A stretch of 64,000 bases of DNA from Candidatus Borrarchaeum weybense. GTDB lineage: Archaea > Asgardarchaeota > Sifarchaeia > Borrarchaeales > Borrarchaeaceae. The stretch spans positions 128,001 to 192,000 of the forward strand of contig JAHQJS010000008.1 in NCBI GenBank assembly GCA_019057385.1. The letters are read 5' to 3'. Made by a program: the position numbers and the translations under genes. The notes under the pieces were generated by a model. The model did no database searches. It was not told the DNA's origin and was given only the letters and a program-made list of their open reading frames with translations. Positions 33,615-57,957 of this stretch are shown here, piece by piece; the first letter of the stretch is position 1, and each line of letters begins with the position of its first letter.

Positions 33615-33983
33615 ATGGAGGAAAAAGAAGGTGCATTACTAAGAATTCTTAAGGAGCTTAGAACAACAGTTGCATCAATAGAAGCGGCAGCAATAGTTAG
33701 CGTGGAAGGATTACCTATAACTAGTGACCTTCCTGGCGACATTGACGAAACGCGAATTGCTGCTATGACTGCTGCCATGCTTTCGCTAGGCGAAAGAGCA
33801 GCGATTGAGCTTGGCAAAGGTGAATTAGAAAGAATTTTTGTAGAAGGAAAAGATGGACACGTGATTGCGAGCGGTGCTGGAGAAAATGCGGTGTTAACTG
33901 TTAGCACAATAAAAGGGGCGAAATTAGGGCTAATATTTTTAGAAATGAAACGTGCAGTAGAGAAAATATCTGAAATTCTCTGA
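33615..33983 (+). CDS. Roadblock/LC7 domain protein
   Basis: AAAIVSVEGLPI, IAAMTAAMLSLGE, KLGLIF. Confidence 0.93.
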   Translation: MEEKEGALLRILKELRTTVASIEAAAIVSVEGLPITSDLPGDIDETRIAAMTAAMLSLGERAAIELGKGELERIFVEGKDGHVIASGAGENAVLTVSTIKGAKLGLIFLEMKRAVEKISEIL

Positions 33984-34636
33984 CATACTCCCACAGTTAA
34001 AGCAGTGAGGTTCTACATTTCTATGGTGAGAAATGAGGGGCGTGCCACCGCCCTGTTAACGACTCCCGCAGAGAGGAGTTCTCCCTGAGCGAGCCCTATA
34101 TTTCCATTGATAATAATTGCAGACAATTAAGCAAGAAAGCACCACCGCTTTAGCGTGGTGAGGAATTGCGTGGTGTTTATATAGTTTTTGGTAATAACAC
34201 TCTTTGAGTACCTACGGGGCGTAGGGAATTTACGCCTGTGGAGATAAGACCTCCGTAACCCGTCAAGGGGATCGAGTCTGTCGTAGAAGCAGGAAGCCTC
34301 GAGGCTTTAGCACGAGGTAGCTCACCGAACTACACTGGACCACACCACAGGGGCTTCATCTTCTGTGATCCTACCAGAGGTCTTGTATCCCTGCCATCCC
34401 TGCCTTCCCTCTGATAGTCATACGTTGATTGATGCCTTTATGCACAGCCCCAGAGTCTATACCATCTCTCTGTCTTACCCACCCTCCACCAGACTGTGCG
34501 GCAATGACCACTTTACAGAGTGGGCCAAAACTATTTAAGTGTTAGGGAGACCCCGTGATGAAAATGATGGCAGTGAACATCAACTACCGCAATTCATCCC
34601 ACACCTGAAGCAGTGGGCTTTCTTGCTTAGCTACCT
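33980..34636 (-). mobile_element. TTAC-class non-autonomous element interrupted by a nested mini-element
   Basis: TTAC|aggtagctaagcaagaaagcccac...gggatgaattgcgg LE; RE agaacctcactgctttaactgtgggagtatgtca. Confidence 0.8.
34121..34325 (+). mobile_element. ~200-bp mini-element (LE + TATA + omega-RNA + RE), copy 2, nested
   Basis: aagcaagaaagcaccacc...tttatatag...gagtacctacggggcgtagggaatt...caggaagcc...gaggtagctcac. Confidence 0.87.
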
Positions 34637-34807
34637 GTAAGTTGTCCATAATAATACCCAAATGGAACTTTTTCTTTTTAAAACCTAAAAAAGGTTTAAA
34701 TGAAAACGTGTCGTCAATAAAATGGTTTATAAGTTATATAGCTAAATGAACATTTATTATTTTCATATCAATATTCAAAGAGCTCGTTTCTCGAAAAAGA
34801 GCGTGAG

Positions 34808-36376
34808 GTGTTAAAATTGAGCGAAAAACGATCTACGCTTGATAAAGTAATGGAGGTATCACTTAGAAGGGGTCTAGTCTTCCCAACTGCCGAAATCTAC
34901 GGTGGTTTTGCGGGCGTTTACGATTTCGGTCCTGTAGGGAGCTTCCTAAGAGAAAATCTGATCAATTTTTGGTTACAATACTTTGTAAAAACTGAGATTG
35001 ATCCTCCAGTTTACTTACTGAGTGGAGGAACTGTGTTACCTTTCGAAGTTCTAAAAGCTTCGGGACATGTTGACCACTTTGTTGACCCCATCGTTTCATG
35101 TTCGTCCCCAGAATGCAAGACAGAATTCCGTGCCGATCATCTTATTGAAGATGCTACAGGACAATTTGTTGAAGGATTGGATGAACAAGAATTAACTCGA
35201 ATTATACGCGAGAATAATATAAGATGCCCAAACTGTGACTCTGAATTAGCTGACGTGACGATTTTTAATCTCATGTTGGCCACAAAGGTCGGTGCAGGTA
35301 AGGGCACTGTGGCGTATATGAGACCCGAGACCGCACAGATAATGTTCCTAGACTTCAAAAGAACAGCTATTAGCATGAGAGCGAAGCTTCCTTTTGGTAT
35401 AGCTCAAGTTGGAAGTTCTTACAGAAATGAAATCTCACCGAGAAAAGGCCTTATTCGCCTAAGAGAATTCGAACAGATGGAAATCGAAATGTTTGTAGAC
35501 CCCGCCACTCTAAATGAACAACCCAATTTTGATGAAATTAAAAATGTCAAGTTAAGACTTTTGACAAGAGAGGGTCAAGAGAAAGAACCACAAGAAATCT
35601 TAGAAATAACTGCAGACGAATCTGTAAAGCAGAATATCTTACCGAACCAATATTTTGCGTATTATTTAGCAAAAGAAACAGTTTTTTACACTCGTTGCGG
35701 TATTCCACGGGATAAATTCAGGTTTAGGCACATGAAACCCGAGGAGACGCCGCACTATTCAGGCGGGAACTGGGATTTAGAGATCGAATTACCAAGAGGC
35801 GAAAATTCACAAATAGTTGAGATTGTTGGCAACGCTTATCGTCAAGCCTATGATCTTGGTAATCATGCAAAACATAGCGGTGAAGATCTCAGTATTGAGA
35901 CAGAAAATGGCGAAAACATCATCGCTCATGTTGTTGAACCTTCATTCGGAGTAGACAGAAGTACTCATTGTATCTTAGAACACTGTTTCAGAGAAAAAGG
36001 TGTCGATAGAGATTGGACATGGTTTCAATTTCCTAATGTTATCGCACCAATTTCGGTTCAAGTCTATCCTTTAATGCGAAAAGATGGGATGCCTGAAAAG
36101 GCAAGGGACATTTATGTCAAATTAAAAAAAGATGCTGGATTTAATGCTATATATGATCAGGCTGGATCTATTGGAAGGAGATATGCACGTGCTGACGAAA
36201 TCGGATGTCCTTATTGCTTAACAATAGACTATACAACATTAGAAGATGACTCCGTTACAATACGTGACCGCGATTCGATGAAACAAATCCGAGTACCTTT
36301 AAGTAAACTTGTCGATATACTGAGACAATTACTTGAGGAAAACATCAAATTTGCAGAGGCAGGTCAGCCTGTCTAG
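34808..36376 (+). CDS. glyS: Glycine--tRNA ligase (alpha2 type)
   Basis: EIYGG, ASGHVDHF, RPETAQ, YRNEISPR, EPSFGVDR, SIGRRYARADEIG. Confidence 0.97.
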   Translation: MLKLSEKRSTLDKVMEVSLRRGLVFPTAEIYGGFAGVYDFGPVGSFLRENLINFWLQYFVKTEIDPPVYLLSGGTVLPFEVLKASGHVDHFVDPIVSCSSPECKTEFRADHLIEDATGQFVEGLDEQELTRIIRENNIRCPNCDSELADVTIFNLMLATKVGAGKGTVAYMRPETAQIMFLDFKRTAISMRAKLPFGIAQVGSSYRNEISPRKGLIRLREFEQMEIEMFVDPATLNEQPNFDEIKNVKLRLLTREGQEKEPQEILEITADESVKQNILPNQYFAYYLAKETVFYTRCGIPRDKFRFRHMKPEETPHYSGGNWDLEIELPRGENSQIVEIVGNAYRQAYDLGNHAKHSGEDLSIETENGENIIAHVVEPSFGVDRSTHCILEHCFREKGVDRDWTWFQFPNVIAPISVQVYPLMRKDGMPEKARDIYVKLKKDAGFNAIYDQAGSIGRRYARADEIGCPYCLTIDYTTLEDDSVTIRDRDSMKQIRVPLSKLVDILRQLLEENIKFAEAGQPV

Positions 36377-36572
36377 TTTTTTAATTAACCTTGTTCCATC
36401 TTTGTGGTGGTATTTATATTTTTTTAATATTTCATTAGATTAGTGTACATACCGATCGCTAACTCCTCGTTCTTCGATTAAAGTGCTTCCTAGCGATAAA
36501 ATATTTAAGTATCGGAATGGATTAATCTAAGTATCGGATGTATGGATCGCCCCGCTCCAGGAGACTCGCCCT

Positions 36573-56194: not shown

Positions 56195-56659
56195 CCACTT
56201 AAGGCACCCCCAATTAGACCTCTTTTGAGTCTAACGGATTCTTAGTTAAGGGATTTTGAAAACATATGATACGGGGGGTTTTTTAAAGTTTTTGTAAATG
56301 ATTTTTTGTATGCTATATACCTATATGATACTCTATGTTTAAGTCGCAAAAACATTTTGTATAGTTTGCGGAGGATTTCACTACAAAATTAAAAAGCACC
56401 ATTTTTCAAAATAGTAATTAATTTTATCGAAATAGCGAAGGGGAACGCAAAGATGGATCTTCAACTAAGAATGTTACAAATCTTCTTTGCGAAAACCGGG
56501 AAACTCACGTAAAAAATTGCGATATTTGAGAAATATTTAAATATGATCTATGAGAATATTGTAATGTATCTTCAATACCCTACTATATATTCGCGATTTA
56601 GACTCTCATTGAATAAGAAATTCAAATGAGAATTTCGATAAAAACGAGGCTGTGTTCTC

Positions 56660-57619
56660 ATGGTGGAGAGTACTGAATTAACTGAAACTAAATTTACACC
56701 GGGTGTAGCTATTTCTTCTCAAGAATGTATGGAATGCGGTTCAACTGAAATTGTAATGGACTCTATTCGAGGGGAGAGAATTTGTAGTATATGTGGATTA
56801 GTAATTACAGAACATGTGATAGATACTGGTCCTGAATGGAGAGCGTTTACTTCAGATGAACGCAATAAAAGAAGCAGAGTAGGCAGTCCAGTCTCATGCG
56901 TTGTTCCTTCTATGGGACTATCAACTATGATTGGGTGGGAAAATAGAGATATTTATGGCAACAAATTGTCACCAAAAAAACGTGCCCAAATCTATAGATT
57001 GAGAAAATGGCAAATACGAACAAGATCACAAGGTTCTTATGAGCGTAATCTCTCCCACGCTATACGCGAACTAGAAAGACTTTCTAGTCAACTTGGAATT
57101 CACAATGGAGTAAAAGAATCAGCGGCTGTCATCTATCGGCGGGCTATAGAAAAAAAGTTAGTTCGTGGACGTTCAATAGAAGCTATGGTTGCTGCATCTG
57201 TGTATGCAGGTTCACGACTTAGGAAAGTTCCTCGTACCCTGGATGAGATTGCCCAGTGTACACGTGTTAATAAAAAAGAATTAGGTCGTTGCTATCGTTT
57301 AATTCTTCGAGAACTTCATATTTCAATCCCCATAGCCAGTCCAGTTGACTTCATTTCTCGTTTTAGTGAAGAATTAAAAATCTCTGGAAAAACTCAACAA
57401 CGTGCAATAGAAATTCTAAATCAAGCAAAAGAATTTGGAATTACTGCTGGTAAAGATCCAACTGGTCTTGCTGCTGCAGCATTGTATATCTCAAGCATTA
57501 CTGAAGGTGAGAGAAGAACCCAAAGGGAAATTGCAGAAATAGCAAGGATAACTGAAGTTACTGTTCGTAACCGCTACAAGGAAATTGTTAGAGTACTTGG
57601 AATAAAAATAGCTGTCTAG
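56660..57619 (+). CDS. tfb: Transcription initiation factor IIB
   Basis: CMEC...CSIC ribbon, GPEWRAF, RLRKW, GRSIE, GKDP, TEVTVRNRYKE. Confidence 0.97.
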   Translation: MVESTELTETKFTPGVAISSQECMECGSTEIVMDSIRGERICSICGLVITEHVIDTGPEWRAFTSDERNKRSRVGSPVSCVVPSMGLSTMIGWENRDIYGNKLSPKKRAQIYRLRKWQIRTRSQGSYERNLSHAIRELERLSSQLGIHNGVKESAAVIYRRAIEKKLVRGRSIEAMVAASVYAGSRLRKVPRTLDEIAQCTRVNKKELGRCYRLILRELHISIPIASPVDFISRFSEELKISGKTQQRAIEILNQAKEFGITAGKDPTGLAAAALYISSITEGERRTQREIAEIARITEVTVRNRYKEIVRVLGIKIAV

Positions 57620-57656
57620 ATATTATATTAAATGGCATTATCCTTCTTTTTTTTAA

Positions 57657-57957
57657 TTTTATTGGCGGGAAGTCCCCTTGCGCCAGCTGGGGGATGAAAG
57701 CCGCAAGGTTTTTATAGTGTTTTGCACAGAAGAGTTCTGATGAATATCGAGAGGAAAGCAGGGATACAAGACTCTTGATAGGAAGGCAGTATGGTGTGAT
57801 TTTGAAACCTGAGGGTTGCTATCACAGAATGCCAAGTGGACAGGCTATTCTCTTTAGAGGGTAATCTGCGACACACAGCCGAACGTAAAACGAAAGTTTC
57901 CCGCAAGGGTTGGGAGGACTCGCAGGAAGCCCCATCTGAAAGGGTGGGGTAGTTCAC
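57657..57957 (+). mobile_element. 301-bp non-autonomous relative of the 41359-42742 tnpB element with intact omega-RNA
   Basis: TTTAA|ttttattggcgggaagtcccc LE; 57819-57957 aligns to the tnpB 3' end/RE (41359-41504). Confidence 0.9.

Follow-up and report, generated by a model that had tools for sequence, protein, structure and literature searches.

Within a 64,000-nt stretch of the genome of the Asgard archaeon Candidatus Borrarchaeum weybense (contig JAHQJS010000008.1, positions 128,001 to 192,000; hereafter, the window), three protein-coding genes, a Roadblock/LC7 gene, rqcH and an acdA-like gene, take their TGA stop codon from the last bases of the right end (RE) of an IS200/IS605-type transposable element lying on the opposite strand. 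A sequence-only reading of the window had proposed as much; the junctions were confirmed as it described them, and at each of the three genes element-free relatives carry a TAA at the same codon. The target-adjacent motif (TAM) beside which these elements insert reads as TAA on the opposite strand, and the transposon-encoded motif (TEM) at most element termini reads as TGA or TAA in the same register. Across the genome (4.18 Mb, 8 contigs, 37% G+C), REs lie at the stop codons of opposite-strand genes several-fold more often than the distribution of TAM sites predicts, with a strong bias toward the stop register. We think it likely that this pattern is a by-product of known cleavage-site motifs and purifying selection, rather than a proven adaptation.

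Junctions and empty alleles

Approximately 100 REs in the genome end in a hairpin and then ...GGTAGTTCAC, beyond which their flanks diverge at once. Since these copies share one end and then diverge, the RE boundary is exact to the base for the elements at rqcH and acdA, and therefore acdA ends in ca/G TGA and rqcH in ac/G TGA, where the letters right of the slash belong to the element. In window coordinates, acdA owes 57954-57957 to its element (TGA at 57954-57956, plus the G at 57957 that completes the last codon, CAG), and rqcH owes 38964-38967 to its own (TGA at 38964-38966, with 38967 as the wobble base of the final codon). The roadblock gene ends in ct/C TGA, and its element-derived part (33980-33983) likewise comprises the third base of the last codon (33980) and the TGA (33981-33983). 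Because the genome holds just one other copy of that RE, the boundary at this gene rests on empty alleles.

Orthologues were compared in four genomes of the same genus (G001-G004; the window genome is G000). For acdA, the G002 allele is ttt cat TAA and continues with an A-run and GGATAATGCC, identical to the flank of the element's left end in the window; G001 and G004 end in gct TAA and cag TAA, respectively. For the roadblock gene, the empty alleles are att ttg TAA G (G002) and atc ttg TAA G (G001). These alleles match the empty sites predicted earlier, EIL-stop for the roadblock gene and HVH-stop for acdA. For rqcH, the earlier reading was that the left end of the element is missing and that the site cannot be reconstructed; the first part held, whereas the second did not, as G003 (aaa aca TAA C) and G001 (aaa gca TAA C) supply the empty allele. 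They imply a TAM of TTAT and a synonymous change from ACA to ACG. The solo RE at rqcH is common to G004 (L019), together with the adjacent (GAT)n run and phosphodiesterase gene. At the roadblock site, G004 (L014) carries the same insertion as the window, cut down to ~48 nt by deletion between the two hairpin halves, and ending in TCAA where the window copy ends in TCAG. This copy derives from the 657-nt window element by a deletion between two AAGCAGTG repeats.

The C terminus of each of the three window proteins coincides with that of its orthologues, and none is truncated; true truncation of the roadblock gene, rqcH and acdA is ruled out by the empty alleles. Six further loci were compared with G001-G004, and in 6/6 the relatives' stop lies at the junction. 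Three of the six involve REs of the TTGAC type, and these add true C-terminal tails relative to the orthologues (SITPP at two loci, SNTPPKR at the third); at one locus with a TAG formed across the junction, the last residue is lost. In none of the nine loci (9/9) did orthologues extend beyond the junction, the proteins agreeing to within one residue or differing by a TTGAC-encoded tail of 5-7 residues.

The same comparisons yielded several observations on the elements themselves. At two TTGAC loci (C6:532057 and C6:825736, compared with L035-L041), the relatives carry TGA in the context ATGAA, which suggests from the aligned sequences that this TTGAC family uses the TAM TTCAT. TTCAT is the IscB-type TAM of ISGst5, and here it is apparently used by a TnpB-type mini-element. 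The stop codon at C6:549226 is occupied by a CTCAC-type element in the window genome and by a different, TTCAC-type element in G004 (L043), through either two independent hits or replacement at one site. Finally, terminal-only relics of 46-50 nt, in which the RE hairpin is fused to the left-end hairpin, occur at the roadblock site of G004 and at C7:90630 and C4:585228 of the window genome; such relics at stop codons still provide the stop.

Register of the target and terminal motifs

When left ends were aligned, 33 copies of the acdA family gave the TAM TTTAA and 44 copies with the roadblock-type left end gave TTAC; TTTAT was obtained for both the rqcH family (60 copies) and one TTGAC-ended family (6 copies). 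TTTAA, TTTAT/TTAT and TTAC all have TTA at positions -4 to -2, which is TAA on the opposite strand, and the element termini TTCAC, CTCAC, TTTAC and TCAG/TCAA read as TGA or TAA on the opposite strand at an equal offset from the junction. The alignments thereby bear out the proposal that the antisense TAA of the TAM and the antisense TGA of the RE terminus occupy the same position. Since both stops share a register, an open reading frame (ORF) that closes at the element's TGA had already closed at the TAA of the TAM, so that true truncation is excluded.

What happens to the last residue follows from the genetic code. The residue is unchanged when TTAC is paired with CTCAC; with TTTAT and TTCAC, the wobble base changes from A to G, which is almost always synonymous. 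With TTTAA and TTCAC, the wobble base changes from T to G and the residue is sometimes changed, as in acdA (His to Gln), while a terminal TAT becomes TAG and one residue is removed. With no truncation, and with proteins ending at the same residue as their orthologues, insertion at a stop codon is nearly neutral, as had been argued from the window alone.

Neither motif is new, since both are already known from IS608 and ISGst. IS608 is cleaved at TTAC on the left and at TCAA on the right, each site being recognised through base pairs with guide sequences that the element itself carries (PMC3201880), and the ISGst elements of Geobacillus have the TAM TTTAT/TTCAT and the TEM TTCAC (10.1101/2023.03.14.532601). 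An element inserts directly 3' of its TAM, without target duplication. Where the TAM is also the stop of an opposite-strand gene, the element splits the last sense codon between its second and third bases, the element's TGA substitutes for the displaced TAA in frame, and that codon is altered at its wobble position alone. Such insertions, being near neutral, would persist, and those in the other two frames would break genes and be purged. The predicted guide of such an element is antisense to the last codons of its host, as the sequence-only reading had it; this is true by geometry alone.

Frequency of stop-codon insertions in the genome

REs were catalogued with ten nhmmer family models and a flank-conservation filter, blind to gene context. 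A hairpin filter allowing G-U and A-T pairs had returned 243 candidates, mostly noise, and gave way first to repeat clustering and later to these models. The catalogue holds 180 termini, of which 92 are TTCAC, 31 TTGAC, 29 CTCAC and 11 TTTAC, plus minor variants. Host ORFs were those of at least 100 residues, with a coding score of at least 0.08, that read into an RE on the opposite strand. Among the 180 REs, such ORFs met the element in the stop register in 25 cases, in the next frame in 3 and in the third frame in 1 (binomial P=6e-9). In 17 of the 25, the TEM provides the TGA or TAA immediately, and three end in a TAG spanning the junction; the remainder are TTGAC-type, four of them reading 19-25 nt into the element before a stop and one closed by a junction TAG.

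Antisense stop codons account for 25/176 tolerated insertions (14%) but for only 3.0-4.2% of non-coding TAM sites (binomial P 1e-7 to 1.5e-10), an enrichment over chance. The excess is also seen when the comparison is confined to REs facing the 3' end of a gene (25/80 at the stop versus 7-10% expected) and to REs no more than 30 nt from a 3' end (25/31 versus 29-43% expected). TAM sites 11-30 nt downstream of stops hold one RE, where ~20 would be expected at the stop-site rate; this near-empty zone may mark terminator signals.

TTGAC-type REs read GTCAAC antisense and supply no immediate stop. Nevertheless, REs without an immediate stop occupied stop codons as often (5/35) as stop-bearing ones (20/145; Fisher P=1), although these numbers are small. 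Since TTGAC REs are equally frequent at stops, with tails of 5-7 residues, an immediate replacement stop is not needed for persistence. In a sense-orientation control with low counts, the TAA of a gene fell within the TTTAA TAM at 2-3 of 33 left ends versus ~1 expected.

Elements of the window and their presumed transposase

The elements of the window (Table 1) are ordinary members of the IS200/IS605 type, present as TnpB-only copies and as protein-free derivatives, or palindrome-associated transposable elements (PATEs). The product of the gene at 41403-42647 (minus strand) matches OrfB_IS605, Cas12f1-like_TNB and HTH_OrfB_IS605, and has ~20 paralogues in the genome. Comparison of empty and filled sites showed insertion without duplication exactly after TTTAA (acdA) and TTAC (roadblock), that is, 3' of a 4-5 nt motif. 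Subterminal hairpins were found at both ends, the RE hairpin being followed by TAGTTCAC in ~100 copies. Approximately 90-150 nt of the RE is conserved in protein-free copies, which fits a predicted guide RNA (omega/reRNA) scaffold; an Rfam scan of the window gave no family above threshold.

Table 1. Genes, elements and target motifs at the stop-codon sites of the window and the full-length relative of one element.
Feature	Position	Strand	Evidence
Roadblock/LC7 gene	33615..33983	+	Pfam Robl_LC7 1.6e-17; relatives end EIL-stop with TAA
Protein-free composite IS200/IS605 element, 657 nt	33980..34636	-	RE terminus ...ATGTCAG at 33980; left end at 34636
TAM TTAC (+ strand: GTAA)	34637..34640	-	TTAC in left-end alignment, 44 copies; empty alleles ttg TAA G
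Solo RE remnant, ~92 nt, of family with TAM TTTAT and terminus TTCAC	38876..38967	+	blastn and nhmmer matches, ~30-39 copies
rqcH (NFACT) gene	38964..40985	-	Pfam NFACT_N 2e-61, NFACT-R_1 6e-32
Full-length TnpB-only element (tnpB 41403-42647)	41359..42742	-	Pfam OrfB_IS605, Cas12f1-like_TNB, HTH_OrfB_IS605; repeats I1-I4
TAM TTTAA	57652..57656	+	antisense TAA 57653-57655 was the stop of acdA before insertion; G002 empty allele cat TAA AAAAAAGAAAGGATAATGCC
Protein-free mini-element, 301 nt, with left-end hairpin and ~150-nt right end	57657..57957	+	terminus ...GGGGTAGTTCAC
acdA-like gene (ADP-forming acyl-CoA synthetase alpha)	57954..59246	-	Pfam Succ_CoA_lig, CoA_binding_2, Ligase_CoA_2; four same-genus orthologues

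The full-length element represents the family from which the acdA mini-element derives; its own TAM, TTTAA, lies at 42743-42747 and is not on a stop codon. The mini-element aligns with both of its ends (repeats I1-I4) and has no tnpB-sized ORF, retaining the ends of a tnpB element as a PATE does. The families of the 657-nt composite and the ~92-nt remnant each have dozens of genomic copies and are distinct from that of the mini-element. The sole Y1 TnpA gene of the genome (PF01797 match; C7:194221-194586) adjoins a tnpB of the acdA element's family. One Y1 TnpA thus stands beside ~20 tnpB genes and at least 180 REs in ten or more families, and the window elements are presumably mobilised in trans by this single putative transposase.

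At the roadblock site, positions 34638-34640 are the displaced ancestral TAA of the gene. A second mini-element of another family (34117-34325, plus strand; RE ending in CTCAC at 34325) is nested in the composite in the opposite orientation, and no clean TTAC was seen at its left boundary. At rqcH, a search for the left end of the solo RE gave no match nearby, and this end is missing. An (ATC)11 microsatellite (38843-38875) separates the RE from the start of the phosphodiesterase gene and is in frame with neither gene; its counterpart in G004 has ~6 units. Both the left end of the RE and the original DNA downstream of rqcH were lost at this microsatellite.

Occurrence in other taxa

One genome per species was scanned for the 16-mer GGGTGGGGTAGTTCAC, giving 81 matches at 80 loci (L052-L131). 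This terminus was found in haloarchaea, Asgard lineages, Methanoperedens, methanogens, cyanobacteria, Deinococcales and others, and ~70 of the 81 matches had the expected hairpin. The ~11 matches without a hairpin, plus a few with conserved flanks (Verrucomicrobia-type), were taken as non-REs. Since GC-rich genomes have ORFs of 100-180 codons in all frames, an ORF cut-off of at least 200 codons was applied. Nine such ORFs were closed by the TGA of an RE in the stop register (~68 hairpin-bearing REs) and none in the other two frames. Pfam domains were identified in 8 of 10 scanned ORFs, and several span to the end of the profile, e.g., FBPase_C (124/127), TOBE_2 (76/76) and Rce1-like (92/93). 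Besides the window genome, haloarchaea, other Asgard archaea and a cyanobacterium show the pattern, and the stop-register effect is general to elements with this end, not peculiar to one genome. Haloarchaeal copies of GGGTGGGGTAGTTCAC have a terminal hairpin with a long nested loop.

Explanations for the enrichment

We favour an explanation in which the enrichment arises because, in a compact genome, purifying selection removes insertions that damage promoters, terminators or coding sequence. The near-empty zone 11-30 nt downstream of stops fits such selection, because most intergenic DNA would be promoter or terminator, and the persistence of TTGAC elements at stops fits tolerance of insertions rather than design of the TEM. 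Several points nevertheless weigh against this explanation. Compared with the average intergenic TAM site, a stop-codon site is 3-4 times as likely to be occupied, and it is also favoured over TAM sites 1-30 nt downstream (the 25 of 31 given above). Since neutrality predicts parity with truly neutral sites, additional selection against most intergenic sites has to be assumed. The two families found on the stop codon at C6:549226 hint at a hot spot. The genes underlying the counts (3,791 genes, 84% coding) come from our own ORF and codon-usage heuristic, not from a standard gene finder, and the RE catalogue covers families ending in a near-match to TAGTTCAC, without singletons and without the family of the roadblock element.

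Alternatively, self-healing might itself have evolved: selection would have preserved the TEM as an antisense stop, since an element that restores the stop harms its host less and spreads better, much as self-splicing serves IStrons. The terminus reads TGA or TAA antisense in register in 145 of 180 REs, and the same pairing is seen in IS608 (TTAC/TCAA) and ISGst (TTTAT/TTCAC); under these pairings the last residue does not change, or changes only rarely, and the pattern recurs in distant taxa. However, the TEM already has an explanation as the site that TnpA cleaves, recognised through base pairing (PMC3201880), and once T and A are fixed on either side, a stop results from two of the four middle bases, which makes the coincidence cheap. 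Moreover, TTGAC-ended elements are equally frequent at stops and merely add 5-7 residues. The self-healing stop is therefore real, but the TTGAC control does not support it as the cause of insertion survival and weighs against an adaptation. We consider this alternative unlikely.

Retention by homing would instead exploit the position of the guide target. A stop-codon site places the 16-20 nt target in conserved coding DNA, so that TnpB could re-cut and re-copy the element into more alleles, and imprecise repair after loss would damage the gene. This could explain why stop codons are enriched relative to other TAM sites close to 3' ends and why two families occupy one stop codon in sister genomes (C6:549226); geometry makes the guide complementary to the last codons, and TnpB is a homing nuclease acting on the donor joint (10.1101/2023.03.14.532601). 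Even so, the acdA guide target differs between species at ~4 of 16 positions, many of the elements at stop sites are terminal-only relics of 46-50 nt that are unlikely to yield a working guide RNA, and there are ~20 tnpB genes for 180 REs. Homing as the cause of the enrichment thus seems to us quite improbable.

The transposase might also favour stop-codon contexts mechanically, through an extended motif, single-strandedness or secondary structure, irrespective of host fitness. Both the enrichment at stops, with its hint of a hot spot at C6:549226, and the near absence of insertions at TAM sites 11-30 nt downstream (1 versus ~20 expected) would be explained in this way. Yet the bias is alike in three TAMs and several hairpin families, RE alignments show no shared flank motif beyond the TAM, and the frame bias of 25 versus 4 is what selection on proteins predicts; we regard an intrinsic preference as very doubtful. 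Least credible is the alternative that the overlaps are fortuitous or that the three genes are truly truncated at the C terminus, and it can hardly be entertained: a priori, one in three antisense intragenic insertions could meet TGA in frame, but no other support was left after testing, orthologues end at the same residue, and the enrichment statistics speak against it.

Relation to known elements and biological meaning

Among the closest parallels is the ISGst group of Geobacillus stearothermophilus (Meers et al., 10.1101/2023.03.14.532601), which has the same TAMs (TTTAT, TTCAT) and end motif (TTCAC), a TnpB guide RNA that ends at the RE, and TnpA-mediated insertion 3' of the TAM without duplication. 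However, ISGst is bacterial and was studied for excision and homing, the term 'stop codon' being absent from the paper, whereas the copies in the window genome are mostly protein-free, with one TnpA serving many families. IS608 of Helicobacter pylori (PMC3201880) has the TAM TTAC and the RE site TCAA, close to the roadblock element (TTAC with TCAG; TCAA in G004), and its antisense pair GTAA/TTGA lies in the same stop register. It differs in carrying both tnpA and tnpB, and no link to host stop codons was found in the searchable literature.

The PATEs of Haloquadratum walsbyi (PMC3119063) are likewise protein-free IS605-type elements with near-terminal palindromes and a conserved terminal oligonucleotide. 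There, repeat-mediated deletions of the core give terminal-only elements of ~52 bp, to which the 46-50 nt relics described here are alike; their position relative to host stop codons is not discussed in that paper. IStrons, which combine an IS200/IS605 element with a group I intron (PMC4227781, 10.1101/2023.11.20.567912), likewise insert without harm to the host gene. Whereas IStrons heal by RNA splicing and can sit within genes, the window elements heal in DNA and only at the stop codon, and this healing needs the end sequence only, not any activity. Full-text literature searches and the key papers gave no description of the stop-codon register of TAM and TEM or of an enrichment at host stops, which is not proof of absence.

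With TAM and end motif both antisense stops in register, the stop codon of a gene is a self-repairing landing site for these elements. At least 25 genes (~0.7% of gene calls) in this genome owe their stop codon to a transposon end, and gene finders will place repeat boundaries within coding sequence at such sites. Excision of an element from a stop site restores the TAA, and the predicted guide of each such element points to the last codons of its host gene. These properties raise the question of whether host fitness has shaped the choice of TAM and TEM. There is a small chance that mimicry of stops by TAM and TEM is an evolved strategy, combining safe harbour with homing, of a large part of the IS200/IS605 family. 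If so, the element would impose no cost on its host, its guide target would be conserved, TnpB could home across more alleles, and sloppy loss would be penalised; such a strategy would account for the several-fold greater use of stop codons than of other sites.

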